Assembly: GCA_965208125.1 (NCBI GenBank)
Contig: OZ242320.1
Coordinates: forward strand, 1,216,001-1,280,000
Reading direction: 5' to 3'
DNA: 64,000 nucleotides
From: Candidatus Latescibacterota bacterium
GTDB taxonomy: Bacteria; Latescibacterota; UBA2968
This document shows, in pieces, positions 8,558-44,847 of this stretch. The stretch's first letter is position 1, and each line of letters starts with the position of its first letter. The notes below the pieces were generated by a model that was not told the DNA's origin, did not search any database, and saw only the letters and a program-made list of their open reading frames with translations. A program made the translations under genes and the position numbers.

Positions 8558-10243
8558 ATGACAAAAAAAATAGCTAATTGCCGATGGTTCGTGCTGCTTT
8601 TTCTCGCGCTCTTTGCCTGTGGCGAAGAAGAAGCACAACAGGCAGAGGGCGGACGTGCTGGACGCGGCGGACGTGCTGGACGCGGTGGTGGTGCTGCGGC
8701 ACCCGTCAAGGTCGAGACTGTACAACGAGGGGATATTTCTGCATATATTCTCAAAAACACGACACTCGAAGCCGAAAGATGGGTTGACGTTCGAGCGCGC
8801 AGAGCCGGGCAGGTCATCGCATTACTAAAAGAAGAAGGCGACCCCGTACGCGCGGGTACCATCATGGCGCGGCTCGACGCCGACGCTGCCCAAATTAGTG
8901 TTGCACAGCGAGAAGTTGCGCATCTTGAAGCCAAACAGCGATATGAACGCGAAGATGCCTTATTTCAACGCAATCTGGGTAGCAAGCAGTCTTATGAAAA
9001 TGCCAAGACCCAATTCGAATCGTCCAAAGCGCAACTCGAACAGGCCAAACTCGATTTGAGTTACACGGCGATTAGATCACCCATTGAAGGCATTATGACG
9101 CTGAGAAATATCGAGGTCGGCAACATGGTCACCAACAATCAGGTGGTCGCCTCTGTAGCCAAATTCGATCCCCTGCTTGCGCGCATTCAGGTAACCGAAA
9201 AGGACTTTGGTAAAATCACCATAGGACAGATAGCACGCGTTACGGTTGAAGCTGCACCTGAAAAAGAATTTACGGGCACAGTCAAAATGATCAGCCCCGT
9301 GGTGGATCCCGAAAGCGGCACGGTCAAAGTAACCGTCGAGATCCCCCGAACAGATAAAACTCTGTTGCGGCCCGGGATGTTTGCCTCGGTTTATATTATC
9401 ACGGAAACGCGAAGAAACACCCTGGTTATTCCGAAAAAGGCCCTCGTACTCGAAGGAGAAGGCAACCAGGTATTCACCTTTGAAACCGACCCCGAAAGCG
9501 GGCGCGGGCAGGCACAACGCAGACGCATTGAAATTGGCTTTACAGACAGTGACCGTTTAGAGATTCTCTCGGGCCTTTCCTCGGGAGAGCAAGTCATTAC
9601 CGTAGGGCAGGAAGGATTGCGGCCCGGTTCTCCCGTGCGCCTCGTAGGCGAGGCAGCACCTCCCGCATTTGCCGGACGCGGTGGACAGGGACGCGCTGGA
9701 CGCGGACAGATGGGACAAGGTGGACAGGGCAGGCAGGGACGTGGACAAATGGGTGAAGGTGGACAGGGTAGGCAGGGACGCGGACAAATGGGACAGGGAG
9801 AAGGACGCGCTGGACGTGGACAGATGGGGCAAGGCGGACAGGGCAGGCAGGGACGTGGACAGATGGGACAAGGAGAAGGACGCGCTGGACGCGGGCAAAT
9901 GGGACAGGGCGGACAAGGTGGACAGGGCAGAGGATTTGCAGGTGGTGATGGACAAGGCAGGCAGGGACGCGGACAGATGGGGCAAGGAGAAGGACGCGCT
10001 GGACGCGGGCAAATGGGACAGGGCGGACAACGAGGTGGCGGTTTTGCCGGTGGGCAAGGCGGCGGTGATCCCACAGATCGCATAAAACGCATGATCGAGC
10101 GCTTCCCCGAAGTCAAAGCCGAATACGAAAAGCGCGTAAAAGACGACTCCGAACTCGCAACAAATATGGAAAAACTCCGCGCTTTTATAGCTGAGATGCA
10201 AGAAAAAGGATTGATGCCATCACGAGGCAGACGAGGTAATTAA
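8558..10243 (+). CDS. RND efflux periplasmic adaptor (MFP) lipoprotein with Gly/Arg/Gln-rich C-terminal extension
   Basis: Lipobox LFAC; IRSPIEG, ISPVVDPESGTVKV, LRPGMF and GL..GE.VIT.G motifs. Confidence 0.92.
   Translation: MTKKIANCRWFVLLFLALFACGEEEAQQAEGGRAGRGGRAGRGGGAAAPVKVETVQRGDISAYILKNTTLEAERWVDVRARRAGQVIALLKEEGDPVRAGTIMARLDADAAQISVAQREVAHLEAKQRYEREDALFQRNLGSKQSYENAKTQFESSKAQLEQAKLDLSYTAIRSPIEGIMTLRNIEVGNMVTNNQVVASVAKFDPLLARIQVTEKDFGKITIGQIARVTVEAAPEKEFTGTVKMISPVVDPESGTVKVTVEIPRTDKTLLRPGMFASVYIITETRRNTLVIPKKALVLEGEGNQVFTFETDPESGRGQAQRRRIEIGFTDSDRLEILSGLSSGEQVITVGQEGLRPGSPVRLVGEAAPPAFAGRGGQGRAGRGQMGQGGQGRQGRGQMGEGGQGRQGRGQMGQGEGRAGRGQMGQGGQGRQGRGQMGQGEGRAGRGQMGQGGQGGQGRGFAGGDGQGRQGRGQMGQGEGRAGRGQMGQGGQRGGGFAGGQGGGDPTDRIKRMIERFPEVKAEYEKRVKDDSELATNMEKLRAFIAEMQEKGLMPSRGRRGN
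9670..10065 (+). repeat. Low-complexity tandem repeats encoding GRGQMGQG(GQGRQ/EGRA)
   Basis: About 8 GRGQMG units at 36-39 bp spacing. Confidence 0.9.
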
Positions 10244-10248
10244 AATCT

Positions 10249-13200
10249 ATGAAACTCATTGAATTTTCGACCCGGCGACGAGTAACAGTAACGATGTTTG
10301 TGGCTGCGGCAGTGCTATTCGGCATGGTGGCTTTTCAACGCCTATCGATTAACCTGCTCCCCGACATCACCTATCCCACCCTGACGGTACGCACAGAATA
10401 CGAAGGCACAGCACCCTCAGAGATGGAACGCTTAATCACCGAACCGATTGAGGGATCTGTGGGTGTGGTAAACGGAGTTATCCGGGTAACCTCGGCCTCG
10501 CGTCCTGGCATATCGGATGTGGTTGTGGAATTCGCCTGGGGCACGGACATGGATTTTGCTTCACTCGATATTCGGGAAAAGCTCGATCAAGTGCGCCTGC
10601 CACAGGACGTGAGAAAACCCGTATTGCTGAGATTTGATCCTTCGCTCGACCCAATCATGCGCATCGGTCTCTACGGCGAAGAAAGTTTGATTTCGTTGCG
10701 TCTCCTGGCCGAAGAAGAAATCAAGCCTGAGTTGGAAAGCCTCGAGGGAGTCGCATCTGTGCGCGTCAATGGCGGTCTGGAAGAAGAAATACAAGTTGAG
10801 ATCGACCAACCCAAACTGGCTGTATTGCGCATTCCACTCGCTCAGGTCGTCAACCGCTTAGCCCAGGAAAATGTGAACTTAACGGGCGGAGAACTCAAAG
10901 ATGGCGAAGCGGAATACCTGGTTCGCACATTCAACGAATTTAAAACAATAGAAGAAATTCAGGATATTGTGGTGGGCCAGCGTCAGGGCACAGTTATCAC
11001 ATTAGCCGATGTAGGACTGGTGACCCGAGGACATCGCGAACGCACGGTAATCACGCGTATTGACGGGCAAGAAAGCGTCGAACTGGCCATATATAAAGAG
11101 GGCGACGCCAACACGGTAACAGTTGCACAAGCCGTTAAAGAAGCCATCGCGCAATTCCGCCGCACATCCGGCGATTTGCTCGGTAATTCGCGTATGGAGG
11201 TCGTCTCCGATCAATCGACATTCATTCGAGACTCGGTCTCCGAGGTCCTCAACACCGCTATTTTGGGCGGTTTTTTGGCCATCATCGTTCTCTACCTATT
11301 TTTGCAAAGCCCCAAAAGCACGGGCATCATCAGCGTATCTATTCCCATTTCAGTTGTTGCCACATTTTTCCTCATGTACGCATCGGATGTGAGTCTCAAC
11401 ATCATGTCATTGGGTGGACTCGCCCTTGGAATAGGCATGCTGGTTGACAACTCCATCGTCGTACTCGAAAGCGTACAGCGTTACCAGGAAAGCGGCATGA
11501 GTCCGCGTGAAGCCACCAACAAAGGGGGGTCTGAAGTGGGGCAGGCTGTGGTGGCATCTACAATGACGACAATATGTGTATTTGTCCCCATTGTCTTTGT
11601 AGAAGGCATTGCCGGACAGCTCTTCCGGGATCAGGCACTCACCGTGACCTATTCGCTCGTCGCTTCCCTCCTCGTCGCACTCACAGTTATTCCCATGCTG
11701 GCATCGTTGGAATTTTCATGGATCGGCGAATTTGCCGCCGTAGAGCAGCGAAAAAAGGAAAGCGGACACAAGGGTGGTGTAGAAGCACCAGCCCGTGCTA
11801 TGGGATTGTTGGGCACAGTTATAGGATGGATTGGACGTGGTATTCTGGCCTGTCTGGCACCCTTATTCTGGCTTTTCGACAGAGTGATTGGGCGAGCTTA
11901 TCTCATCTATCCGCACATTATCAGGTGGGCACTCAGGCATCGCCTGTATGTAATTGGGCTGGCAATAGCCCTCCTGGGCGGCACTATAACACTTGGCAAT
12001 AGACTGGGCAGTGAACTGATCCCCGAAATGAGTCAGGGAGCGTTCTCTATTGCAGTCGAGATGCCGCTGGGCACACCCCTTGCCGCCACCACACAAACCA
12101 TTCAAGCCATTGAGAGGATTGTGCGCAGTCAACCCGAAGTGCGCCTGGTGTACAGCATTGTCGGCACGCAATCCGCATCTGGAGGTAGCGGTGGAGAAGA
12201 AAGGGAAAATGTAGGCGAAGTCAATGTCGTACTCCACGAGGGCATTATTCGGGATCGCGAAATTGCCGTGATGGATCGCCTGCGCCAGATGATCCTGGAA
12301 ATTCCCGCCGTGGATACAAAATTTGCCCGCCCATCGCTATTTTCTTCCCGCACGCCAATCGAAGTAGAAGTCGCCGGTTATAATTTGCAGTCGCTACAGA
12401 TGATCGCCGGGGAAATGATGGCGCGCATGCAAACCATTCCGGGACTGACAGATATTAAAACCACGAGCGAGGGCGGTACACCCGAAGTGCAAATTCGGTT
12501 TGACCGCAAGCGCGTGGCGCAAATGGGCACGACGATTAATGCCATTGGCGAGATTATCCGCAATCAGGTTCAAGGGGAGGTCGCCACACAATTTACCCGA
12601 GGAGATCGGCGGGTCGATATTCGCGTTCGCGCCGAGGAGGAACATCGAAGTACAGTAGATGATCTGAGGCGATTGATCATCAGCCCCAACAATGCCCCAT
12701 CGCCAGTTCCTTTGAGTGTGGTCGCCGATTTACAGGTGGAAATGGGACCTGCTGAAATTCGCAGAATTGACCAGGAGCGCGTGGCATTGATTTCAGCCAA
12801 CCTGGTGGGACGAAGTCTGAGTGCTGTCGTCGCAGACCTCGAACGCGAAATCGATCGGATGGAATTGCCCGCCGATTTTGCAATCAAAGTGGGTGGACAA
12901 AATGAAGAGCAACAGCGGTCGTTTGAAAGTATGCAATTGGCGATTGGATTGGCGATCTTTCTCGTTTATCTGGTCATGGCATCGCAGTTTGAATCGCTCG
13001 TTCATCCCTTCGTGATCATGTTTGCCATCCCTTTTGCGCTGGTAGGTGTTTTTGCCCTGCTCCTCATTACCGGGCAGACCATCAGTGTGGTCGTGCTCAT
13101 CGGTTTGATTATGCTCGCCGGCATTGTCGTCAACAATGCCATCGTGCTCATCGATTATATCAACACGCTTCGCCGAGATGAGGGCATGCCCAAAATGGAA

Positions 13201-13524
13201 GCGATTGCACAAGGGGGCAGAGTGCGTCTGCGTCCCATTTTGATGACCACCTCGACAACCGTGCTCGGTTTGTTGCCCATGGCACTGGGCATTTTCAATT
13301 TCCAGCCCCTTGTCAAAAGCATCGAAGGTGCGCTGGACGGCATATTGTCCGGGCAGGTATTCATCGCAGTCATGACTGTGGTGGGTATGATATTCCCTGT
13401 GGGACAGGGCGCTGAGATACGCGCGCCTATGGCCATTACCGTTATTGGTGGCCTGGTCGTATCAACACTGGTAACCCTGGTACTGATCCCAACGCTATAT
13501 TCGCTAACCGACCGCAAGGAATAA
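10249..13524 (+). CDS. AcrB/AcrD/AcrF-family RND permease
   Basis: GMLVDNSIVVLE, GIVVNNAIVLID and RLRPILMT motifs; 12-TM pattern. Confidence 0.96.
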   Translation: MKLIEFSTRRRVTVTMFVAAAVLFGMVAFQRLSINLLPDITYPTLTVRTEYEGTAPSEMERLITEPIEGSVGVVNGVIRVTSASRPGISDVVVEFAWGTDMDFASLDIREKLDQVRLPQDVRKPVLLRFDPSLDPIMRIGLYGEESLISLRLLAEEEIKPELESLEGVASVRVNGGLEEEIQVEIDQPKLAVLRIPLAQVVNRLAQENVNLTGGELKDGEAEYLVRTFNEFKTIEEIQDIVVGQRQGTVITLADVGLVTRGHRERTVITRIDGQESVELAIYKEGDANTVTVAQAVKEAIAQFRRTSGDLLGNSRMEVVSDQSTFIRDSVSEVLNTAILGGFLAIIVLYLFLQSPKSTGIISVSIPISVVATFFLMYASDVSLNIMSLGGLALGIGMLVDNSIVVLESVQRYQESGMSPREATNKGGSEVGQAVVASTMTTICVFVPIVFVEGIAGQLFRDQALTVTYSLVASLLVALTVIPMLASLEFSWIGEFAAVEQRKKESGHKGGVEAPARAMGLLGTVIGWIGRGILACLAPLFWLFDRVIGRAYLIYPHIIRWALRHRLYVIGLAIALLGGTITLGNRLGSELIPEMSQGAFSIAVEMPLGTPLAATTQTIQAIERIVRSQPEVRLVYSIVGTQSASGGSGGEERENVGEVNVVLHEGIIRDREIAVMDRLRQMILEIPAVDTKFARPSLFSSRTPIEVEVAGYNLQSLQMIAGEMMARMQTIPGLTDIKTTSEGGTPEVQIRFDRKRVAQMGTTINAIGEIIRNQVQGEVATQFTRGDRRVDIRVRAEEEHRSTVDDLRRLIISPNNAPSPVPLSVVADLQVEMGPAEIRRIDQERVALISANLVGRSLSAVVADLEREIDRMELPADFAIKVGGQNEEQQRSFESMQLAIGLAIFLVYLVMASQFESLVHPFVIMFAIPFALVGVFALLLITGQTISVVVLIGLIMLAGIVVNNAIVLIDYINTLRRDEGMPKMEAIAQGGRVRLRPILMTTSTTVLGLLPMALGIFNFQPLVKSIEGALDGILSGQVFIAVMTVVGMIFPVGQGAEIRAPMAITVIGGLVVSTLVTLVLIPTLYSLTDRKE

Positions 13525-14894: not shown

Positions 14895-17800
14895 ATGAAT
14901 CACTGGTGGACGCGCCGACTACAAGTCGGCCTTTTGGGGATTGCGATAATTTTAATAGCCATGTGGGGATGTGGACGCGAGCGCGTAAATCCAATTGACT
15001 CACAATATGAGGGTGAGGGAACCGTAGCTTTGAATTCGCCGGGCAATATTCGCGCCCAGGGTGATATTGGACGGATCATTTTGAACTGGAATCCGGTAAA
15101 CAGCACCAGCCTTGCGGGATACGGTATATGGCGATCAACATCGGCTACGGGAAGCTACGAGCTATTGCGCGGCGAATCATCTGTCCCCGACGTGACGACA
15201 GCACGGACGACTTATGTGGATTCAACAGTAGATGTTAGTGTATCAAAAATATACTTTTACAAACTCAGTAGCGTAGATGTAGAAGGGCAAGCGAGCGAAT
15301 TATCTACATTTGTGAGCGCGGAAGTCCTCGATGACACGCGCGCGCCGGCTATGCCGACAAATTTCGTCGCTATCACCGATGCCGATGGCAAACAGGTGAC
15401 ACTGGGCTGGTCAGCGCCAGAAACGGATGTGGGTAATCAGGAATTGACCGGCCTGTCCGGGTACAGAATTTTCAGGATCAAAGATTCGCAGGGCAAACTC
15501 CAGATACAAGGTGCGGAAACAGCACTGATTGCACTCGCAACAGAACTGGGCATTGACCTCGATAATCTGGGAGAAATATCCGAAGATTTGAAGGATATTT
15601 TCGTCGAACTTGGGACAGTGCCAGCCGGCCAGACTTATTTTCTCGATACCGATGGCCTCGAAGCTGGCGTACTTCACGTTTATGTGGTCATCGCTGTTGA
15701 TCCAGATGGCAACATTGGTCCTCCAGCACTTGCATTAGTGACCATAAGCGCACCGGGTGCAAACGTACCAGTGCCTGCTGGCTTGCGCGCAACACAAAAT
15801 GAACAGGCGCGCATTGTCATCTCCTGGAATCCCGTGAACGACCCCAATTTGCTGGGCTATCTGGTCTTGCGGTCACAATCGACGCAAGGTCCTTTCACAC
15901 CCGTCACAAGCGATACGCTCTTTACCACGGGGCAGACGACCTATGTCGATTCGCTTGTCGCCACCGATCAAGTGTATTTCTACAAAGTTCAAACCGTTGT
16001 GCAAGATCCCAATCTTGGACTATTGCACAGTGATCCTTCCACTTTTATCGACGGACAGGCACTCGCCGACCAGAGTGCGCCTGGTGCGCCATCGGATCTC
16101 ATTGTCAGTTTAGACGATGCGAATTTCCAGCGCGTGATGCTCAGCTGGACTGCACCTGTAACAGACAGAAATGGGAATGAGTTGACCGGATTGGCCTCCT
16201 TTGAGATCTACCGGTCACGCGACAACAACACATCCTTTGCGCTGATCGCTACAGTATCGAGCGATCAGGCGAGTTTTGTGGATACTTCTGTCGAATTGCT
16301 CACGACGTATTTCTACGCGATCAGAGCAGTGGATCAGGCAGGCAATGCTGGACCCCGGTCTCAGCCGATATCTGTGACCACGAAGGGCTTTGCCATTCCA
16401 CGCAACGTGCAAGCCGCTGGTGGTGAGCAGAAAATCACCTTGACCTGGGCGGCAAACACCGAGCCGGAATTGACTGGATATGAGATACTCCGCTATACAG
16501 ATCCCACACATGAAACACCTGACAAAACCTTCTCTTCTGTATTGACGACATATGTGGATACCCCCGTCACAGCAGATCAGCCCTTTGTCTATCGCGTGCG
16601 TGCGGTTGGCACCGCCAATGTGAAGAGCGAACTGTCGGCTCCCGTCTCTGCACAGGCCACTGAATCTGCGCCAGTTTTGGCAGCCCCGCGCAATGTGCAG
16701 GCAAGGGGTGGAATAGGACACATTACCATCACCTGGTCAGCCAATACAGAAGCAGAACTGACCGGGTATCGCGTAATGCGCTATACGGACCCGGCACAGA
16801 CAGTGGCCGAAGCGACCTTTACCACTGTGCAGACGACTTATGTCGATTCGCCGCTGGTAGCAGAACAGACCTATGTGTATCGCGTGCAGGCGGTTGGTAC
16901 CAACAACGAAGAAAGCGAAACTTCGCTGTATGCTTCTGCAACCGTCTCAGCCGATCAGAGCGCTCCTGGTGCTCCCTCAGATCTCATCCTCAGCTTAGAC
17001 GATGCGAATTTCCAACGCGTGATGCTCAGCTGGACGGCTCCCACAAGAGACAGCAATAACAATGAGTTGACTGGTCTGGCCTCCTTTGAGATCTATCGCT
17101 CACGCGGGAACAACACATCCTTTGCACTGATCGCTACAGTATCGAGCGACCAGGCGAGTTATGAGGACACATCTGTCGAATTGCTCACGACGTATTTCTA
17201 CGCAGTCAGAGCAGTGGATCAGTCAGGCAACGCTGGACCTCGTTCACAGTCGGTTTCCGTGACCACGAAGGGCTTTGCCGTTCCACGCAACGTGCAAGCC
17301 GCTGGTGGTGAGCAGAAAATCACCCTGACCTGGGCAGCAAACACCGAGCCAGAACTGACTGGATACGAGATATTGCGCTATACAGATCCCACGCAAGAAA
17401 CACCTGACCAGACCTTCTCTTCTGTATTGACGACGTATGTGGATACCCCCGTCACAGCAGATCAGCCCTTTGTCTATCGCGTGCGTGCGGTTGGTCCTTC
17501 CAACGTGAAGAGTGAACTATCGGCCTTTGTCTCTGCCCAGGCCACTGAATCTGCGCCAGTTTTGGCAGCACCGCGCAATGTGCAGGCAAGAGGTGGAATA
17601 GGACACATTACCATCACCTGGTCAGCCAATACAGAAGCAGAACTGACCGGATATCGCGTGTTGCGCTATACAGACCCTGCTCAAACCGAAGCTGAAGCGA
17701 CCTTCACAACCGTACAGACGACTTATGTTGACTCTCCGCTGGTAGCAGAACAGACCTATGTGTATCGCGTACAGGCGGTTGGTACCAACAACGAAGAAAG

Positions 17801-20800
17801 CGAACTCTCGCTGTATGCTTCTGCGACAGTCTCTGCTGATCAGAGTGCGCCTGGTGCGCCTTCGGATCTCATCCTCAGCTTAGACGATGCGAATTTCCAG
17901 CGTGTGATGCTTAGCTGGACGGCTCCCACGAGAGACAGCAATAACAATGAATTGACTGGACTGGCCTCCTTTGAGATCTACCGGTCACGCGGGAACAACA
18001 CATCCTTTGCGTTGATCGCTACAGTATCGAGTGATCAGGCGAGTTATGAGGACACATCTGTCGAATTGCTCACGACGTATTTCTACGCAGTCAGAGCAGT
18101 GGATCAGGCAGGCAACGCTGGACCTCGTTCACAGTCGGTTTCCGTGACCACGAAGGGCTTTGCCATTCCACGCAACGTGCAAGCCGCTGGTGGTGAGCAG
18201 AAAATCACCTTGACCTGGGCTGCAAACACCGAGCCGGAATTGGTGGGCTATGAGATACTCCGCTATACAGATCCCACGCACGAAACACCCGACAAGATCT
18301 TCTCTTCTGTGTTGACGACATATGTGGATACCCCCGTTACAGCAGATCAGCCCTTTGTCTATCGCGTGCGTGCGGTTGGCACCGCCAATGTGAAGAGCGA
18401 ACTGTCGGCTCCCGTCTCTGCACAGGCCACTGAATCTGCGCCTGTATTGGTAGCCCCGCGCAATGTGCAGGCAAGGGGTGGAATCAATCAGATTACCATC
18501 ACCTGGACTGCCAACACAGAAGCAGAACTGACCGGGTATCGCGTAATGCGCTATACAGACCCGGCACAGACAGTGGCTAAAGCGACCTTTACCACTGTGC
18601 AGACGACCTATGTCGATTCGCCACTGGTATCAGGACAGACCTATGTCTATCGCGTACAGGCGGTTGGCACCAATAACGAAAAGAGTGAACTGTCGCTGTA
18701 TGCTTCTGCGACAGTTGCAACCGATCAGAGTGCGCCTGGTGCTCCCTCAGATCTCATTGTCAGCTTAGACGATGCGAATTTCCAGCGCGTGATGCTCAGC
18801 TGGACGGCTCCCACAAGAGACAGCAATAACAATGAGTTGACTGGTCTGGCCTCCTTTGAAATTTATCGCTCACGCGGGAACAACACATCCTTTGCACTGC
18901 TCACTACAGTATCGAGCGATCAAGCGAGTTATGAGGACACATCTGTCGAATTGCTCACGACGTATTTCTACGCAGTCAGAGCAGTGGATCAGTCAGGCAA
19001 TGCCGGACCTCGTTCACAGTCGGTTTCCGTGACCACGAAGGGCTTTGCCGTTCCACGCAACGTGCAAGCCGCTGGTGGTGAGCAGAAAATCACCCTGACC
19101 TGGGCAGCAAACACCGAGCCAGAACTGACTGGATACGAGATCTTGCGCTATACAGATCTCACCCAAGCTACACCTGACCGGACCTTCTCTTCTATATTGA
19201 CGACGTATGTGGATACACCTGTCACAGCAGATCAGCCCTTTGTCTATCGCGTGCGTGCGGTTGGTCCTTCCAATGTCAAGAGTGAACTCTCGGCTCCCGT
19301 CTCTGCCCAGGCCCTGGAATCTGCGCCAGTTTTGGCAGCCCCGCGCAATGTGCAGGCAAGGGGTGGAATAGGACACATTACCATCACCTGGTCAGCCAAT
19401 ACAGAAGCAGAACTGACCGGGTATCGCGTAATGCGCTATACGGACCCTGCTCAAACCGAGGCCGATGCGACCTTTACCACTGTGCAGACGACTTATGTCG
19501 ATTCGCCGCTGGTAGCAGAACAGACCTATGTGTATCGCGTACAGGCTGTTGGCACCAATAACGAAGAAAGCGAAACTTCGCTGTATGCCTCTGCGACAGT
19601 TGCAACCGATCAGAGCGCGCCTGGCGCCCCCTCAGATCTCATCCTCAGCTTAGACGAGGCGAATTTCCAACGCGTGATGCTCAGTTGGACTGCACCTGTA
19701 ACAGACAGAAATGGCAATGAGTTGACAGGTCTGGCCTCCTTTGAAATCTACCGGTCACGCGACAACAACGCCTCCTTTGCACTGATCGCCACAGTATCGA
19801 GTGATCGGGTGAGTTACGTAGATTCTTCTGTCGAATTGCTCACCACGTATTTCTATACCGTCAGAGCAGTGGATCAGGCAGGCAACGCTGGACCCCGGTC
19901 ACAGCCAGTATCTGTGACCACGAAGGGCTTTGCCATCCCGCGCAATGTGCAAGCCGCTGGTGGTGAGCAGAAAATCACCTTGACCTGGGCTGCAAACACC
20001 GAGCCAGAACTGACCGGATATGAGATATTGCGCTATACAGATCTCACACAAGCAACACCTGACCGGACCTTCTCTTCCATATTGACGACGTATGTGGATA
20101 CGCCTGTCACAGCAGATCAGCCCTTTGTCTATCGCGTGCGTGCGGTTGGTCCTTCCAACGTGAAGAGTGAACTCTCGGCTCCCGTCTCTGCCCAGGCCAC
20201 TGCGCCTGCGCCTGTATTGGCAGCCCCGCGCAATGTGCAGGCAATTGATGGAATTGAGTACATTGCCATCACCTGGTTAGCCAATACAGAAGCAGAACTG
20301 ATCGGATATCGCGTGTTGCGCTATACAGACCCGGCGCAAACCGAAGCCGAAGCGACCTTTACCACTGTGCAGACGACTTATATCGATGCGGAGGTGGTAG
20401 TGGGGCGGACCTACGTGTATCGCGTGCAGGCGATTGGTTCTAATAACGAAGAAAGTGAACTCTCGCTATTTGCCTCTGCAGAGGTACTGCCTGATAACAG
20501 CCCACCTGCTACCCCCAGCAATTTTGAAGCTGCTCTGGCAAGTAGCGGCACATCAATTGAGTTGAGTTGGGATGCACCCACAAGGGATAGGGATATCAAC
20601 ATTCTGACTGGACTCGCTGGCTTTGTGATCTATCGTTTGGAAGTATCCAGTACGGACGCATCGAATGTTGCATTAACTAGGATAGCAACCATAGATGATC
20701 CGACGCAGGAAATGTATCGGGATACCAATCTGCGAAGCCAAACGGAGTACAGGTATCGGATCTCTGCCATTGACCACCGTGGCAATGAGAGCCCTCCCTC

Positions 20801-34292: not shown

Positions 34293-34988
34293 CTATTTCC
34301 CGATAGGCAAGCCGATACCAACCTGAAGGGCAATAGACCGGTTCTTAACATCATCATTTTCTACTTTGCTAAACGATTGGACCCCCAAAGTGTACAGCAA
34401 TTCGACTAAGAATGTCATCCCTTCGGAAATCGCTATCTCAGTACCGATCCCTCCAGTAATGCCCAAGTCCACCGTCCTGGTCTTGACGAAGTCCCCACAA
34501 TCCACTGGTTTCCCTGTTGTTGACCCATCTGTACCCACGATTCCGCACTTGACATTGAACGCCACCGCCGGTCCAGCGAGCACATATATGGAAGTTGGGC
34601 CTCCGGGTGGGACGAGCGAGGCGATACCCAGGCCTGAAAATTCGATATAATCAAGGTTTGCACTGCCACTTAAATTATCAATGCCAAAAAAGTCCAAAAA
34701 GCCGTCTTCGACAACATCGGCTTGCCACCCTTTCTGCACATAGTTACCACTGAGTTGAAGGGCGAATCTATCCTGTATTGTGATAGTTGCAGAAGTACCG
34801 ACTTTGATGCCTGTACGCGCGCCCATGTCCAAGCCTTCTAGGGACGCGTCATCTCCGCCTATGGTCGCTCGACTCAAGCCTCCCCGAATAGCGATTGTTG
34901 TCTGCCCAAAAACAGGGATAGGATCGTGCAGGGCCGCCAAGGCTATTACACCCATGATAACGATGTAATGAAATGATAAGTGTTTCAT
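34293..34988 (-). CDS. Outer-membrane beta-barrel (PorT/OmpA-like porin family) protein
   Basis: Signal peptide, alternating beta strands, LDYIEF, C-terminal KNRSIALQVGIGL; AGGTGAGG RBS. Confidence 0.8.
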   Translation of the reverse strand: MKHLSFHYIVIMGVIALAALHDPIPVFGQTTIAIRGGLSRATIGGDDASLEGLDMGARTGIKVGTSATITIQDRFALQLSGNYVQKGWQADVVEDGFLDFFGIDNLSGSANLDYIEFSGLGIASLVPPGGPTSIYVLAGPAVAFNVKCGIVGTDGSTTGKPVDCGDFVKTRTVDLGITGGIGTEIAISEGMTFLVELLYTLGVQSFSKVENDDVKNRSIALQVGIGLPIGK

Positions 34989-35061
34989 ATCTATATACCT
35001 CACCTGTAAAAAAGATGATGCCAAAATGGTCTCTGATTGGTAGAATCGAAAAAAATGTAAC

Positions 35062-35213
35062 TTGATGTTGTGGTTGTGGAACTTTACATTTTGATACAGA
35101 GCGGGTTGCGGTTTGCAAGACCGTTTCCTCTCTGTATGTTGCGGCAGAAGGCCACAGGCAGCCAAACCGAGCGGCCTTCTGCCATTCCCGCAGACATCAT
35201 ACATGTTTGCGGT
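35062..35213 (+). ncRNA. Structured element B, copy 1 (promoter plus putative sRNA 35096-35213)
   Basis: TTGATG-N17-TACATT followed by two conserved hairpin domains; near-identical to the 36.1 and 44.4 kb copies. Confidence 0.6.
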
Positions 35214-35241
35214 ACAGATCTCTCTTTTTTCTTTCTACCTT

Positions 35242-35736
35242 CTATTCTGCCTTCTTTATCTTCTCTATTTTGATCTGTACGGGTTGTGTTGAAATAAATT
35301 TCACCGATGCATCGCCAGAAGGGACAATTTTAACGGGTATATCGACAGCACCTGTTTGTTGGCTCGTAAGAGTAACGCTGATTCTCTCTGGGTATAAATC
35401 ATATAATGATCCTGCCATGTAATCTACCATGAGACCCACACCGGACCCGAGAAGATCAAGAAGGACAACTCCAATGTCCACTTTTTTTCTGATTCTCACC
35501 TGACGTGTCTCGTATCCTTCTTTTGAAATTGTAACATTATAATTCTGATTACGTTCCAATTCTGCTTCTGCTGGTGTGGTATATGTCTCGCCTTCTATAT
35601 CAACGGTGCTTCCTGGTGGTGTCGATCTAATGCTAATAAGTTGAGTAGAGCCATTAAGAATCAATCCACATCCAGAAAAAGAAAACAAAGAGAAAGTACA
35701 CAGCAATGCTAATGATACGGACAGGCAATTTTTCAT
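35242..35736 (-). CDS. PEGA-domain lipoprotein
   Basis: Lipobox FSGC; S.PPG..V.I.G...TP...L......VTISKEGY PEGA pattern; AAGGAAGG RBS. Confidence 0.85.
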   Translation of the reverse strand: MKNCLSVSLALLCTFSLFSFSGCGLILNGSTQLISIRSTPPGSTVDIEGETYTTPAEAELERNQNYNVTISKEGYETRQVRIRKKVDIGVVLLDLLGSGVGLMVDYMAGSLYDLYPERISVTLTSQQTGAVDIPVKIVPSGDASVKFISTQPVQIKIEKIKKAE

Positions 35737-36048
35737 AACAACAATCCTTCCTTTTCTTAAAGGTCAAATACGTAACTAAATGTGAGTGATGTCTCATTGA
35801 TGGCGACTATAATCTATCACCCACATCAAATTCTTTTTTTGCACAAAACTAACACCGCGAAATTCTAAACTCAATGAGACGACATGCTTTCTGATCTTAT
35901 CCTCCTTTCAAAAGCAAATATTACTGATAGATTGAATTACCCTGCTCCGCATCTAGGTTAATACTTCTCGCCTAGTAACAGATCGGGCACAGACATAAGT
36001 TTTAAGCCTTCTCCTCCTTTCTCGTTGCATCAAACGGGAAAATGCAAC

Positions 36049-36210
36049 TTGCTTTTGTGATAGTGGCACTTTACATTGTGAACAGAGCGGGTTGCGGTTT
36101 GCAGAACCGTTTCCCCCTCTGTATGTTGCGGCAGAAGGCCACAGGCAGCCAAACCGAGCGGCCTTCTGCCATTCCCGCAGACATAATTACCTGTTTGCGG
36201 TTTTTTTTAT
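36049..36210 (+). ncRNA. Structured element B, copy 2 (promoter plus putative sRNA 36082-36210 with terminator)
   Basis: TTGCTT-N17-TACATT; 3' hairpin ccgcagaca...tgtttgcgg followed by T8. Confidence 0.65.
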
Positions 36211-36260
36211 AATAAGCGTTCAGCAGTCAGCAAAACAAGCTATTCGCTGATTTTCAGCAA

Positions 36261-36300
36261 TAAAAAAACCGCGTGTCCAGAACCAGATGACACGCGGTTG
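36261..36300 (-). terminator. Intrinsic terminator downstream of element A
   Basis: Minus strand AACCGCGTGTC-loop-GACACGCGGTT followed by a T-tract. Confidence 0.85.
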
Positions 36301-36319
36301 ATTATTGTGCTATAAATAA

Positions 36320-36544
36320 TACCGAATGCCATATCACCTATGGCATCCGGTTGCATTATAGAGCCGGTCAAATGCCACAGGCTGTTAGACTCTATCTATA
36401 GCCCAGATTGAGCTCGGCCCTTTCGGAAACCGAAACCATAGCATTTAACCGGCTGGAAGTTGCACAGTATATCCGGCCCCTCCAGCCGGTGCTATAAATA
36501 AAGCCTAACGGCCTTATATTACAACATAAAAGAATCGTTTGCAA
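36320..36544 (-). ncRNA. Structured element A, copy 1, with its promoter
   Basis: TTGCAA-N17-TAATAT (36544-36516); hairpin, three-way junction and terminator-like hairpin; homologous to 44581-44814. Confidence 0.62.
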
Positions 36545-36754
36545 GAAGAAATTGCTCATAAAATTTGCTGGCGCAGTCTGGTATAAAGCGGGCCAATCCA
36601 TAGATTGTACACCCCGCTTCAGTGTGGGGCAGGACCCAAAGTAAGACCACAATGTACATACACTCACAGGTACAGAGAGGTTTCAAATTTATTCATGCTG
36701 AGTCACCGAACAACACCAGTATCGCGTGATAAAGGAGCGTGGATTTGCGTTTTA

Positions 36755-41850: not shown

Positions 41851-44313
41851 CTATTGGTTCACAATAATCTGGTTGTGTTCGTTGTCACCAATGACCTCCC
41901 ACGGGGTTGGCGCATCCACTGTGCCTATGATGTTAATCAGCACCTTGCCAGAGGTTTTTACCCGGATTCCGACAGTATTCGCGCGAATAAAACCCGTGAC
42001 AATAATCGTGATGTCGCCAGTCTCACTCTCGGCACTGATGCCGATTCCGTGGCGGTTGCTGGCGATAATGGTGCCGTCGATGACAATCTCTATATCGCCG
42101 CTACCCGCCGGGCGCGAGGGGTCGTAGAGTACATTTTTACTTTCGGCTAAAATCCCGATAGCTCTGGGACCAGACACGACGATATCACCGCTGTTGTCGA
42201 TGACGATATCACCAGCTGAATACACGCGGGTTTCCCCGTCAACGGTGATGTCCCTGCCATACGCTTGGGCATATATCCCGTGAGAGCGGGCTCGGCTCGT
42301 CTCAATGCGACCCGAGTTGGCGATTTCGATCTTGCCGCCGAGGCCGTGATGTGCCCTCAGCCCGCTTGCATCCTCTCCGCGTGTTGTGATCTGACCGGTA
42401 TTCGCCGCGTAGGTCAGCCGAGTTTCTCCGATGGGATCAGGGGGCAACAATCTGAATTTTTCTCGGCTGCGCTGGTCGAGAAGATCGTGGAACGGCGTGA
42501 TATCAAACCCAGGAATCCAGAAGGCGAAAGCCAAAAGGCCCGAAGACCTCAAGCCAGTAGTTGAAACAGTTCCTTCATTGATGCCATAAGCTTGACCAGA
42601 CCTCTTCGCTGCGACCGCAATTCCAGGGCTGCGGCGCCCCGTTGTCTCGATGATGCCGGTGCGGTAGTTTCGCGCGTATGCAGCACCTGCGGCATTGGTT
42701 TTCGGCCGCGTTATGATTTCCTCTTGTATGTGGTGGCAACCCTCATTGTCAAAATAGGCAGCACAGGTCTCGGAATGAATACCATCGCTGAGTCTTCCCC
42801 TTGTCGTTACGCTGCCGGTATTATGCGTCTGCGTTGTGCCCCACAAGGTCTGCGCTGCCACTCCGCGGCTACTAACGCCCTCTACATCGATGGTTCCGTA
42901 GTTGATTGAGCGGGCAAGCTGGCCGCCGGTCTCGACGAATAGGCCATCTTGTCGGCCTTCGTCCCCAGTGATGAGAATACTGCCGCTCGACAGGTTGATG
43001 GACTCGGCAACATGTGTGTCGTCGTGTGGTGCGGCACTCTTGTGGATTTGGCTCGCGATGCCCCGTAGCGTTTTATCCGTCGAGTTATCGATTGTTACCG
43101 TACCGTAATTAGCTGTGTATACATTTCCACTGCCGCGCGAATATGTCCGCAGTCCTATACCCCATTCGAGTATTTGGATCATGCCCTTATTGACCAGCAT
43201 TAAATCGTCGGTATTTCCATACGTTATAATATTTATAGCAAACGCATTGGTCGCGTTGATCCCCGCTGTTTCTGTGAATGTGGCCGCGTATGCCTGCTTT
43301 TTTTCGTCTGAACTGTTGATGAAATTGAGGGCTGAGGTACCGGAGGGAACAGTGATCGTGCCTGCATCGTAATAGACATGGGTGGCGATGTCGGGATCAG
43401 AGGCTGTCGCTGGATTTAGCGGCGTTACCCTGTCGCCTTCGTAGCTATCGGTTATTGGGAGGGTAATTGTGTAATCCCTTACCGGGTATGGCGAAAAAGC
43501 TGGAGAAGGGTTGGACAGCGTGAGATGATCAAAGCGTACATTAACCCCTCTCTCAGATAGGGCGGGAATGTGCGTATTGAGCGACATGGCACTCAGCGGA
43601 TTATTATTCAGTAAAACCCAGTCGTCCTTGTCCAATCCCGTATTAGCTACCAATGGCGCGATATCCGAGATTGTATTGCCACGAAGATATAGATGTGTCA
43701 GGCCGGTCAGGTTGGCAACTGGCGCAATATCCGAGATCGCATTGCCATCGAGATTCAGCCATCTCAGGCTGGTCAACTCATCTATCGGTGCGATGGTAGA
43801 TATGTCGTTGCTGTTTACTTTTCGCCCCTCTATCCAATCATAGCCAAAATTTAGCCGTGTCAGATTCGTTGCATACTCGAGACCTGTCAAATTGCGAATG
43901 GCTTTGTTAGGTGCGTCAAGGCGCGTCAATTTTGACATATCGTCCGGGGTAATAGGTGCATCGCTTGTTTTGCCGAGAATTTTGGCAATGACCGCACGCA
44001 GGTTCTCATCTGGAATGTCAACAGTCGTTGTGCCGCCACTGCCTGACGGCGGAAATGTCTTGCCCCAATTGGAAATAAGGAGCCTTAAGTCCAATTCATC
44101 AACGATCTTATCACTTTTCAGATCAAACTTCGCATCCCAATTTGGTCCACCTGCTCGCGTTCCCCAATTGGAAATAAGGAGCCTTAAGTCCAATTCATCA
44201 ACGATCCCATCGTCGTTAAAGTCAGGAGAAGGCGTAGGGGTCTGAGATGCAAGAGACAGCGGATAGGCCAACACACATAAACAAATCATCAAAAACGCAA
44301 CACGAAACTTCAT
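41851..44313 (-). CDS. Secreted dockerin + LRR + autotransporter-passenger-like beta-helix protein
   Basis: Signal peptide, duplicated IVDELDLRLLISNWG, LRR module, N.G.I.T.G..S.GI.A repeats; no C-terminal beta-barrel. Confidence 0.82.
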   Translation of the reverse strand: MKFRVAFLMICLCVLAYPLSLASQTPTPSPDFNDDGIVDELDLRLLISNWGTRAGGPNWDAKFDLKSDKIVDELDLRLLISNWGKTFPPSGSGGTTTVDIPDENLRAVIAKILGKTSDAPITPDDMSKLTRLDAPNKAIRNLTGLEYATNLTRLNFGYDWIEGRKVNSNDISTIAPIDELTSLRWLNLDGNAISDIAPVANLTGLTHLYLRGNTISDIAPLVANTGLDKDDWVLLNNNPLSAMSLNTHIPALSERGVNVRFDHLTLSNPSPAFSPYPVRDYTITLPITDSYEGDRVTPLNPATASDPDIATHVYYDAGTITVPSGTSALNFINSSDEKKQAYAATFTETAGINATNAFAINIITYGNTDDLMLVNKGMIQILEWGIGLRTYSRGSGNVYTANYGTVTIDNSTDKTLRGIASQIHKSAAPHDDTHVAESINLSSGSILITGDEGRQDGLFVETGGQLARSINYGTIDVEGVSSRGVAAQTLWGTTQTHNTGSVTTRGRLSDGIHSETCAAYFDNEGCHHIQEEIITRPKTNAAGAAYARNYRTGIIETTGRRSPGIAVAAKRSGQAYGINEGTVSTTGLRSSGLLAFAFWIPGFDITPFHDLLDQRSREKFRLLPPDPIGETRLTYAANTGQITTRGEDASGLRAHHGLGGKIEIANSGRIETSRARSHGIYAQAYGRDITVDGETRVYSAGDIVIDNSGDIVVSGPRAIGILAESKNVLYDPSRPAGSGDIEIVIDGTIIASNRHGIGISAESETGDITIIVTGFIRANTVGIRVKTSGKVLINIIGTVDAPTPWEVIGDNEHNQIIVNQ
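44063..44206. repeat. Perfect 45-bp direct repeat (99-bp period) forming the two dockerin halves
   Basis: ccccaattggaaataaggagccttaagtccaattcatcaacgatc at 44063 and 44162. Confidence 0.9.
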
Positions 44314-44361
44314 GATCGCCCCTCCCTTTCTCGTCGCATTCCTCAACCGGAAAAATGCAAC

Positions 44362-44522
44362 TTGATTTTGTGGTGGTGGAACTTTACATTGTGCATAGAG
44401 CGGGTTGCGGTTTGCAAGACCGTTCCCCTCTCTGTATGTTGCGGCAGAAGGCCACAGGTGGCCAAACCGAGCGGCCTTCTGTCATTCCCGCAAACATAAC
44501 ACACGTTTGCAGGTTTTTATTT
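44362..44522 (+). ncRNA. Structured element B, copy 3
   Basis: TTGATT-N17-TACATT; same hairpins; gcaaac...gtttgc followed by a T-tract. Confidence 0.62.
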
Positions 44523-44580
44523 ACGACAATCGTTCTGTCAGGACTTTCTCATCTTCTCGATTTACAGTCTGGAATCAGAC

Positions 44581-44814
44581 AAAAAAACACCGAATGCCAT
44601 ATCACCTATGACATCCGGTTTCTCTATTGAATATGCCGATTAAATGCCACAGGCTACCTTCTTAATCTATAGCCTAGATTAAGTTCGGTTCCTTTAGTCC
44701 CCGAAGCCATAGCATTTAACCGGCTGGAAGTTGCACAGTATATCCGGCTCCCTCCAGCCGGTAGGCTATATTTAAGAAGGCACCTTATGATAAACATTAA
44801 TAAACTTTACGCAA
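44581..44814 (-). ncRNA. Structured element A, copy 2, ending in an intrinsic terminator
   Basis: TTGCGT-N16-TATCAT; compensatory changes relative to copy 1; hairpin followed by GTTTTTTT. Confidence 0.62.
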
Positions 44815-44847
44815 TAAAAAACGCATAAGCCTTTCCAAGGAGAAATC

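Follow-up and report, generated by a model that had tools for sequence, protein, structure and literature searches.

We describe here two putative small RNA genes, termed A and B, and the control region in which they lie, within a 64,000-nucleotide (nt) stretch of the genome of a Candidatus Latescibacterota bacterium (contig OZ242320.1 of GenBank assembly GCA_965208125.1, positions 1,216,001 to 1,280,000; hereafter the window). Alignment of two loci of the window revealed two blocks lying in the same order and orientation at 36020-36545 and at 44320-44815, with a spacer between the blocks that could not be aligned. Block B spans 36030-36208 and 44343-44521, and block A approximately 36315-36550 and 44583-44815. 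RNA gene B, on the plus strand, faces RNA gene A, on the minus strand; each has its own predicted promoter and terminator, and the non-conserved spacer separating them measures 65-160 nt. The order proposed for both loci in a preliminary description of this DNA, namely a hairpin with a ribosome-binding site, the promoter of B, B, A and, pointing the other way, the promoter of A, proved correct upon alignment and upon reading of the promoters and terminators. Copies from the window are referred to below as W35, W36 and W44, and copies with L-numbers are from loci fetched from other contigs.

In the 36-kb copy, RNA B (36084-36208, plus strand) is approximately 125 nt long and folds into three hairpins with a z-score of -6.9, the fold z-scores of the three window copies ranging from -5.0 to -6.9. 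It is preceded by a sigma-70-like promoter read from the sequence (TTGCTT at 36049-36054, a 17-nt spacer and TACATT at 36072-36077), and the last of its three hairpins (36175-36200), followed by a T-run, is predicted to be its terminator. The 44-kb copy (44397-44520, plus strand) is similarly flanked by a promoter (TTGATT at 44362-44367, a 17-nt spacer and TACATT at 44385-44390) and by a terminator hairpin at 44488-44513 leading into a T-run. The third window copy, W35 (35043-35221), has no A beside it; its RNA B is located at 35097-35212 on the plus strand behind TTGATG (35062-35067), a 17-nt spacer and TACATT (35085-35090), and its last hairpin is not directly followed by a T-run. The 17-nt spacing of the -35 and -10 boxes of B is retained across subgroups whose left flanks are otherwise unrelated. 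The stems of 16 aligned copies comprise 509 Watson-Crick, 54 G-U and 12 A-C cells and, since a G-U pair on the plus strand would be an A-C mismatch on the minus strand (54 versus 12), the helices belong to a plus-strand RNA. In the terminator stem, two neighbouring positions are A-U, G-U or G-C depending on the copy, and a T-run comes directly after the terminator hairpin in 9 of the 16 copies, as read by eye from the alignment.

RNA A of the 36-kb copy (36311-36510, minus strand) is placed behind a promoter consisting of TTGCAA (36544 to 36539), a 17-nt spacer and TAATAT (36521 to 36516). In plus-strand coordinates, its long outer stem, P1, pairs ~36492-36512 with 36384-36403; the conserved hairpin P2 lies at 36447-36491, a stretch that we call segment 1 at ~36434-36454 and hairpin P3 at ~36404-36433. 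Beyond P1 come a hub, segment 2 (~36362-36383), which holds GCCUGUGGC (plus strand 36374-36382), and terminator T1 (36351-36321), a 13-bp hairpin with a U-rich tail. A second terminator on the same strand, T2 (36260-36300), stands behind A36 and is made of a GC-rich hairpin (36299-36267) followed by a U-run, 36299-36262 in all. The 44-kb copy of A (44580-44780, minus strand) has its promoter at TTGCGT (44814 to 44809), a 17-nt spacer and ATCATA (44791 to 44786), P2 at 44719-44762, GCCUGUGGC at plus strand 44646-44654 and a T1 (44619-44589) with a 13-bp hairpin and a U7 tail, without T2. The P1 arms of this copy are unlike those of A36 in sequence, and their pairing is retained. All ten A copies available from the window and the fetched loci have a P1 of 19-22 bp, which is part of the single-sequence best fold in nine of them. 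In the alignment, 6 of the 18 P1 pairs change on both sides and 89.2% of the cells are paired, versus 33-46% when the partners are slid; the arms exist in five sequence versions and one degraded version. The core enclosed by P1 is highly conserved, the promoter hexamers are conserved around a spacer of variable sequence, and the A stems show 110 G-U versus 16 A-C cells on the assigned strand.

Both RNAs thus present a promoter, a stable fold and a same-strand intrinsic terminator, the marks of an independent small RNA gene, on the grounds of consensus and fold predictions, and covariation was seen in the terminator stems. A coding role was rejected for B, as one-base insertions or deletions in copies L004, L010b and L001a break any reading frame, and for A, as the open reading frames (ORFs) inside it are unlike in both length and sequence in W36 and W44; the unlike ORFs of A and the broken frames of B also spoke against a type I toxin-antitoxin pair. 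Two observations were made around the A promoter. The sequence upstream of it in the minus sense (36545-36700) is conserved in L013, and its first 40 nt in L014 and L004; this conservation goes past the A/T-rich part beside the -35 box, for example in GGCGCAGTCTGGTATAAAGCGGGCC, and may represent a regulator binding site or another RNA. Separately, the single-stranded linker and start of hairpin 2 of B (TATGTTGCGGCAGAAGGCC, 36122-36140) show 74% complementarity, at the DNA level, to the stretch covering the -10 box and start of A (36510-36528); the B RNA is thus similar, not complementary, to A near its 5′ end, probably by chance.

The P1 fold of A has competitors. RNAalifold preferred a helix between segment 1 (GCCGGUUAAAUGCUAUGGUU, inside the P1 domain) and segment 2 (AGCCUGUGGCAUUUGACCGGC, just 3′ of P1). 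This 1:2 helix is 20 bp long, with 199 of 200 cells paired, 46 G-U cells and no two-sided changes; seven of its pairs vary one-sidedly, every change keeping a standard or wobble pair. As it crosses P1 and takes in bases of P2 and P3, the 1:2 helix competes with the P1 fold, the one backed by covariation. A further potential partner of segment 2 is the 5′ arm of T1, termed segment 3; their helix of 13-15 bp (-18.5 to -24 kcal/mol) can form in all ten copies and in most of them equals or exceeds T1 in stability. T1 itself (segment 3 with segment 4) has 9-13 bp and ranges from -7 to -23 kcal/mol. In full-length folds, T1 wins in W36, W44, L013, L014c and L004x, pairing of segment 2 with segment 3 persists in L002, L014a, L001a and L005a, and L005b adopts the 1:2 form. 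T1 is strong in W44, L013, L014c and L004x (-19 to -23 kcal/mol plus a U-tract), where T2 is absent, and T2 is found in the six other copies (W36, L002, L014a, L001a, L005a and L005b), which are exactly those with a T1 of -7 to -15 kcal/mol or, in the case of W36, a poor U-tract. Every A copy thus has a strong terminator, either T1 or T2, ahead of B, which we read as selection for termination rather than for read-through.

Relatives were sought by one scan of genome contigs with a 19-nt stretch of B that ends just before CCACAGG, a motif that was thereby left unfixed. The scan returned 14 loci, none of them identical to the window, of which the overlapping L001/L008, L005/L006 and L010/L011 were counted once each. 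Eleven of the 14 came from six assemblies, four of which carry the name Latescibacterota or Latescibacteria, and the sixth of which has two contigs labelled 'uncultured bacterium'. The remaining three (L003, L007 and L009) belong to other phyla and gave no nhmmer match to A or B; a query of 19 specified bases would give about four hits by chance in this collection. In the fetched loci, nhmmer yielded 14 further copies of B and 8 of A, a 48-nt fragment of B in L001 being left uncounted, and a search for diverged copies across the window found none past its three B and two A. Among the resulting 17 copies of B, 10 are accompanied by A and 7 are not (W35, L012, three in L010, L014b and L001b), and all ten copies of A stand beside a B. 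Of these seven lone copies, three are truncated and W35 has no U-tract directly behind its last hairpin, while L012 and two from L010 appear intact. The A copy of L004 (13429-13659), 3.3 kb from its B, looked alone and turned out to belong to a pair split by two transposase ORFs: the inserted ORFs (10131-13304) encode a DDE_Tnp_1 protein (619 amino acids) and a Mutator family protein (412 amino acids), and the insertion has the nine bases CAGATTGAT at both of its edges (10161-10169 and 13405-13413) and leaves A and B both intact, its flanks matching the uninterrupted spacer of L013. Since 7 of the 17 B copies do without A and every A comes with B, we regard B as the core of the cassette and A as an accessory. 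Independent occurrence of the two RNAs, which the preliminary description had taken as a sign against their functioning together, was therefore observed for B and not for A.

Within each genome the copies are clustered, within a few kb to 46 kb of one another, and a search for mobile-element ends around the module revealed no terminal inverted repeats, which together point to local duplication rather than transposition. For the same two reasons, the module was not classed as a dispersed repeat of the miniature inverted-repeat transposable element (MITE) or repetitive extragenic palindromic (REP) type. No Rfam family was matched at gathering score anywhere in the window, permissive Rfam scans returned sub-threshold matches alone, mostly terminator-driven, plus a weak match to c4-2 that is considered below, and blastn of the 526-nt module against plasmid and phage collections found no match.

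B faces its neighbours in a fixed manner: the cassette is made of the B promoter, a 7-bp hairpin and a Shine-Dalgarno (SD) sequence, set head to head with the start of the neighbouring gene. At 36 kb this left part (36009-36048, minus strand) consists of the hairpin (36048-36024), which abuts the -35 box of B with a 1-nt overlap, and of the SD-like GAGAAAGGAGG (36023-36009). It is conserved in one subgroup of B copies. At 44313, the hairpin and GAGAAAGGAGG lead directly into the ATG of a minus-strand gene for an 820-amino-acid dockerin/leucine-rich repeat (LRR) protein. The cargo is otherwise diverse. W35 precedes an outer-membrane beta-barrel gene starting at 34988 on the minus strand; W36 is followed by a conserved non-coding leader of ~300 nt and then by a PEGA lipoprotein gene (35736 to 35242), of which L013 carries the orthologue; L010 has two paralogous WD40/CARDB proteins, L014a and L001a ankyrin-repeat proteins, and other copies small proteins without a Pfam family, most of the cargo having signal-peptide-like starts. 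The proposal that the module is portable was thus upheld insofar as B, with its hairpin and SD sequence, precedes unrelated genes; A, in turn, is optional, and the third B copy of the window had been overlooked. The same description had pointed to a 12-codon ORF, MSVPDLLLGEKY (35996 to 35958, minus strand), behind the conserved SD sequence of the 36-kb copy as a sign of cargo swapped behind a fixed module. The ORF is present and the swapping is supported by the contexts above, yet the ORF is not conserved: four of five related copies (L002, L013, L010b and L014b) have ATC in place of its ATG, and the fifth, L004, has ATT there and an ATG one codon downstream. It is an incidental ORF within the conserved non-coding leader.

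Two further observations concern the cargo. The conserved non-coding stretch that extends for ~170-300 nt after the first SD sequence (35740-36010, minus strand) also exists in L002, L013, L010, L014 and L004 and ends in a second SD-like motif, AUUUGCUUUUGAAGGGAGG, which in L004 starts a 151-amino-acid lipoprotein gene; in the window, AUUUGCUUUUGAAGGGAGG is followed by a 4-codon ORF, and the PEGA gene begins 150 nt further. Cargo proteins that are otherwise unrelated have similar signal peptides, AYPLSLASQ in the LRR/dockerin protein at 44313 and IYPLSLSSQ in the WD40/CARDB proteins of L010 (9890 and 13314), so that the duplicated unit extends into the coding start in some copies.

Our preferred reading of these data, to which we attach roughly even confidence, is that A and B are two separately terminated, small structured RNAs set in a portable control region. 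We infer their expression and their targets from sequence. Both RNAs would regulate, by base pairing, the genes equipped with the cassette. With its promoter at ~25-90 nt from the start codon of the neighbour, B lies so near that the leader of this neighbour must overlap B or its promoter, and B would be an antisense RNA to any transcript crossing a B copy from the opposite side. At 35.1 kb, B is antisense to the gap between two minus-strand genes, the PEGA gene with its stop at 35242 and the beta-barrel gene with its start at 34988; no minus-strand terminator was predicted between these two points, so that an operon transcript would carry the exact complement of B, and this PEGA-to-beta-barrel RNA would be the cis-antisense target of B. 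For transcripts crossing other copies, B would be a near-perfect partner in trans. RNA A (~190-250 nt) would function on its own, its termination being kept efficient to avoid running into B. The short complementarity between A and B, to which we return below, may permit their pairing, and nothing in this reading requires it.

A number of points weigh against the reading of A and B as stand-alone RNAs. RNA A holds the full helix set of an attenuator (1:2, 2:3 and 3:4, the latter being T1), and transcripts cut after segment 3 fold, in all ten copies, as P1 plus segment 2 on segment 3, a predicted behavior that agrees with conditional termination and would be surprising in a simple stand-alone RNA. 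The promoters and terminators rest on consensus matches. Some of the lone B copies may be decaying. The loci were gathered through B, which means that A copies far from any B would be missed, and all A-B pairs descend from one ancestral module, such that their constant order and orientation count as a single event. No convincing promoter was located for the downstream minus-strand genes. The sole candidate (TTGCAA or CTGCAA, 18-19 nt, CAnAAT) is weak, overlaps the -10 box of B and came out of a search by eye for sigma-54-type promoters and for minus-strand sigma-70 promoters inside B, its score being below the threshold of the promoter scan. Downstream genes might therefore depend on read-through from the A promoter. 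Finally, a search for a conserved target of B in the adjacent 5′ leaders and early coding sequences, valid in six of eight cases, found none that recurred.

The preliminary description had drawn attention to a short motif in B complementary to the closing stem of A, and had inferred from it an antisense control of A by B. The motif is present in both window pairs. GCCACAGGC occupies 36138-36146 (plus strand) at the top of hairpin 2 of B36 and recurs in the DNA of A at 36374 and 44646, B44 having GCCACAGGT instead (44451-44459). The 'closing stem', in turn, corresponds to one of the two competing folds of A, and the covarying P1 fold leaves the GCCUGUGGC segment outside. A second match noted between the same RNAs, AAACCGA with UCGGUUU, does exist in the 36-kb pair and is found in 1 of the 10 pairs. 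The core of the main motif, CCACAGG in B and CCUGUGG in A, does not vary among the 16 full B copies or among the ten A copies, and an 8-nt complementary core is kept in all ten pairs, with longest Watson-Crick runs of 9, 8, 9, 9, 8, 11, 8, 11, 11 and 8 nt, the 11-nt pairs being related to one another. Upon 500 shuffles of B of each type in the 36-kb pair, a run of at least 9 nt was obtained in 6.2% (mononucleotide) or 7.4% (dinucleotide) of cases, the corresponding figures for 8 nt or more being 22.2% and 26.8%, in keeping with the caution already voiced that a 9-nt match could be due to chance. In the window, GCCACAGGC was found 5 times versus 0.49 expected; four of the five sites lie inside A or B copies, and the excess therefore merely reflects the repeated copies.

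Covariation and binding predictions did not bear out the proposed contact. The core cannot covary, because it is invariant in all full B and all A copies, and the variable flanking position is uncompensated, with a U in B facing G (wobble) in W44, L004 and L014c and an A in A facing C (mismatch) in L005b. Unrestricted RNAduplex calculations with A and B were discarded, since the full-length duplexes that they produced had no meaning and in most pairs did not surpass those of shuffles, and a seed-helix model with opening energies was adopted instead. In this model, hybridization of the motif contributes -14 to -22 kcal/mol and opening costs 6-14 kcal/mol on each side, the complementary core being buried in the predicted folds of both RNAs; the total is unfavorable in nine of the ten pairs (+1.4 to +6.2 kcal/mol) and amounts to -2.6 kcal/mol in L005b. 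The motif duplex ranked 2nd to 26th among the candidate helices. For each pair, between 10 and 40 of the 40 shuffled versions of B had a best site at least as good as that of the real B, the counts being 12 and 10 in two of the pairs. The stem of hairpin 2 of B takes up the GCC of the GCCACAGGC motif, whose remaining bases are paired in an irregular prolongation of this stem. The conservation of the motif is thus explained by the own structure of each RNA; pairing, for instance by loop nucleation, is possible and unsupported. A functional antisense link between A and B was, altogether, not supported by the tests run.

The position of the motif nevertheless gives an attenuation mechanism controlled by B some standing, and we consider it a possible but doubtful alternative to stand-alone RNAs. 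According to it, the minus-strand genes would have A as their 5′ leader, and the terminator of A would act conditionally. Segment 2 would by default sit on the 5′ arm of T1 as an antiterminator, and the polymerase would read through, antisense to B, into the gene; capture of segment 2, either by B via GCCACAGG in its hairpin 2 or by segment 1 of A, would let T1 form and transcription stop. Read-through would in turn interfere with B, resulting in a two-state switch. The complementarity of 8-11 nt falls exactly in hub segment 2, which is able to pair with the 5′ arm of T1; the 2:3 helix exists in all ten copies and is the best fold of every transcript cut after segment 3; the CCACAGG/CCUGUGG core is shared by all pairs, the run reaching 11 nt in the three related ones; A is found with B alone, always upstream of B and of the gene in the minus sense; and a convincing separate promoter of the downstream genes is missing. 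The earlier suggestion that B sets read-through of A is, to this extent, structurally coherent, its site lying in the switching segment. Against it, a strong terminator precedes B in every copy: T2 is present in 6 of 10 copies, where T1 is weak, and read-through would still stop before B. The core does not covary and the flank changes are uncompensated; the length of the match is within chance (22-27% of shuffles for at least 8 nt, 6-7% for at least 9 nt); the predicted duplex costs +1.4 to +6.2 kcal/mol in 9 of 10 pairs and is often equalled or bettered by shuffled B; the GCC of the motif is held in the stem of hairpin 2; and 7 of the 17 cassettes must, if functional, work without A. A yet more speculative proposal, which we think improbable, carries the same idea further and holds that A and B form a self-contained, RNA-only two-state switch moving as a cassette, in which default read-through of A would silence B and turn on the surface or repeat-protein gene, and pairing of B with the hub of A would restore termination and thereby protect the expression of B.

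Two other explanations appear less probable still. In the first, A would be a riboswitch-like or protein-controlled attenuator sensing its ligand or protein via P1-P2-P3, with B unrelated to its control. The highly conserved core inside a covarying P1 and the alternative helices 1:2, 2:3 and 3:4 are as this explanation would have them. A gene in the same direction is located downstream of A in all ten cases, behind T1, sometimes T2, and the convergent B; the nearest such gene, however, lies beyond these terminators, a convergent RNA gene and 250-800 nt, T2 stands in the way in six of the ten copies, no metabolic theme unites the downstream genes, and no Rfam riboswitch was matched. In the second, equally improbable, B would not be a functional RNA at all, the repeated promoter and leader DNA having been copied together with the 5′ ends of paralogous exported-protein genes and the hairpins being by-products or leader elements of minus-strand mRNAs; clustering of the copies within a few kb to 46 kb per genome, homology running into the signal peptide in some copies (YPLSLASQ, YPLSLSSQ) and the paralogy of the two L010 WD40 genes downstream of B would agree with it, but the G-U versus A-C asymmetry places the helices of B on the plus strand, its terminator stem covaries and has a T-run on that strand alone, the 17-nt spacing of its -35 and -10 boxes is held across subgroups with unrelated left flanks, and terminal inverted repeats are absent.

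With regard to known systems, plasmids pT181 and pIP501 use antisense-RNA-mediated transcription attenuation, in which the regulator is transcribed opposite the leader and is fully complementary to it. Antisense-RNA-mediated attenuation in a Gram-positive plasmid is likewise the subject of passages of PMC3181467 on Anti-Q and prgQ of pCF10. As in these three systems, the promoters of A and B converge, a small RNA is proposed to push a leader towards its terminator form, and the target has alternative antiterminator and terminator helices. In A, the predicted helices 1:2, 2:3 and 3:4 are present in 10 of 10 copies and the B-complementary site lies in segment 2, where binding of B is predicted to be unfavorable. 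Unlike in these systems, there is no overlap between A and B, which share a complementary run of at most 8-11 nt instead of full complementarity, the setting is chromosomal rather than plasmid-borne, and a second terminator follows A in 6 of 10 copies. We therefore did not assign the pair to this type, A and B being set apart by a spacer and terminators. The immunity RNAs of phages P1 (c4) and P4 (CI) act through short complementary stretches near a termination decision, two target repeats matching two loops. The present RNAs resemble them in combining a short structured RNA with a short complementarity near such a decision, and the part of A made of segment 1, P3 and segment 2 gave a weak match to Rfam c4-2 (RF02944), with 21.5 bits for A36 and 23.5 bits for L013 relative to a gathering score of 41, A44 giving no match at E up to 10. 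Unlike the phage RNAs, they have chromosomal neighbours with no phage context and one conserved complementary stretch, a second being found in 1 of 10 pairs. With a score below gathering, no phage context and no second pairing, membership in c4-2 or in the c4 antisense RNA clan (CL00128) was rejected. The element thus falls outside the antisense-attenuation and c4 families, though the predicted helix set of A would allow a similar way of working.

The position of B relative to its neighbour recalls micF, a small RNA gene transcribed divergently from the adjacent ompC. Like micF, B is transcribed divergently from its neighbour, with whose start it shares a compact control region, and this neighbour often encodes an exported or outer-membrane protein. 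Unlike micF, it occurs in multiple copies, travels with a fixed hairpin and SD sequence and has its promoter within ~25-90 nt of the neighbour's start; no sequence relation of B to micF-type RNAs was found.

Almost nothing is known, to our knowledge, of RNA regulation in Latescibacterota, and a literature search on small RNAs in Latescibacteria returned nothing on the subject, which does not show that nothing is in print. Small RNA genes and attenuator-like leaders are known kinds of element; the two RNA families and their arrangement in a cassette appear to be new. What emerges is a pair of conserved structured RNA families with defined predicted ends that front genes for exported, ankyrin, LRR and WD40 proteins. 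Such repeat proteins are discussed, in passages of PMC12993501, as eukaryote-like proteins of sponge-associated Latescibacterota. If the cassette controls these genes, it would offer a handle on how such proteins are switched. If the link between A and B were real, it would represent a chromosomal, non-overlapping version of antisense-driven attenuation, and the RNA-only switch, if true, would let members of an uncultured phylum vary, through a portable element, the expression of their outer-membrane, ankyrin, LRR and WD40 proteins.

Other repeats were noted in the window. A GC-rich, terminator-like palindrome, AAAAGAGAACGCCCCAGCATCGTTGTGCCGGGGCGTTCTC, has five copies (27022, 27726, 28963, 36773 and 37733), one of which lies between the A promoter region and the next gene, and a short palindromic intergenic repeat, GGGACGGCACAGGGGCCGTCCCCTAC, has four (40421, 52720, 52800 and 55355). 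Positions 16065-20465 are taken up by five tandem copies of an 885-nt unit, 86-88% identical and with internal sub-repeats of 288 and 597 nt, which are presumably repeated domains of a very large protein.

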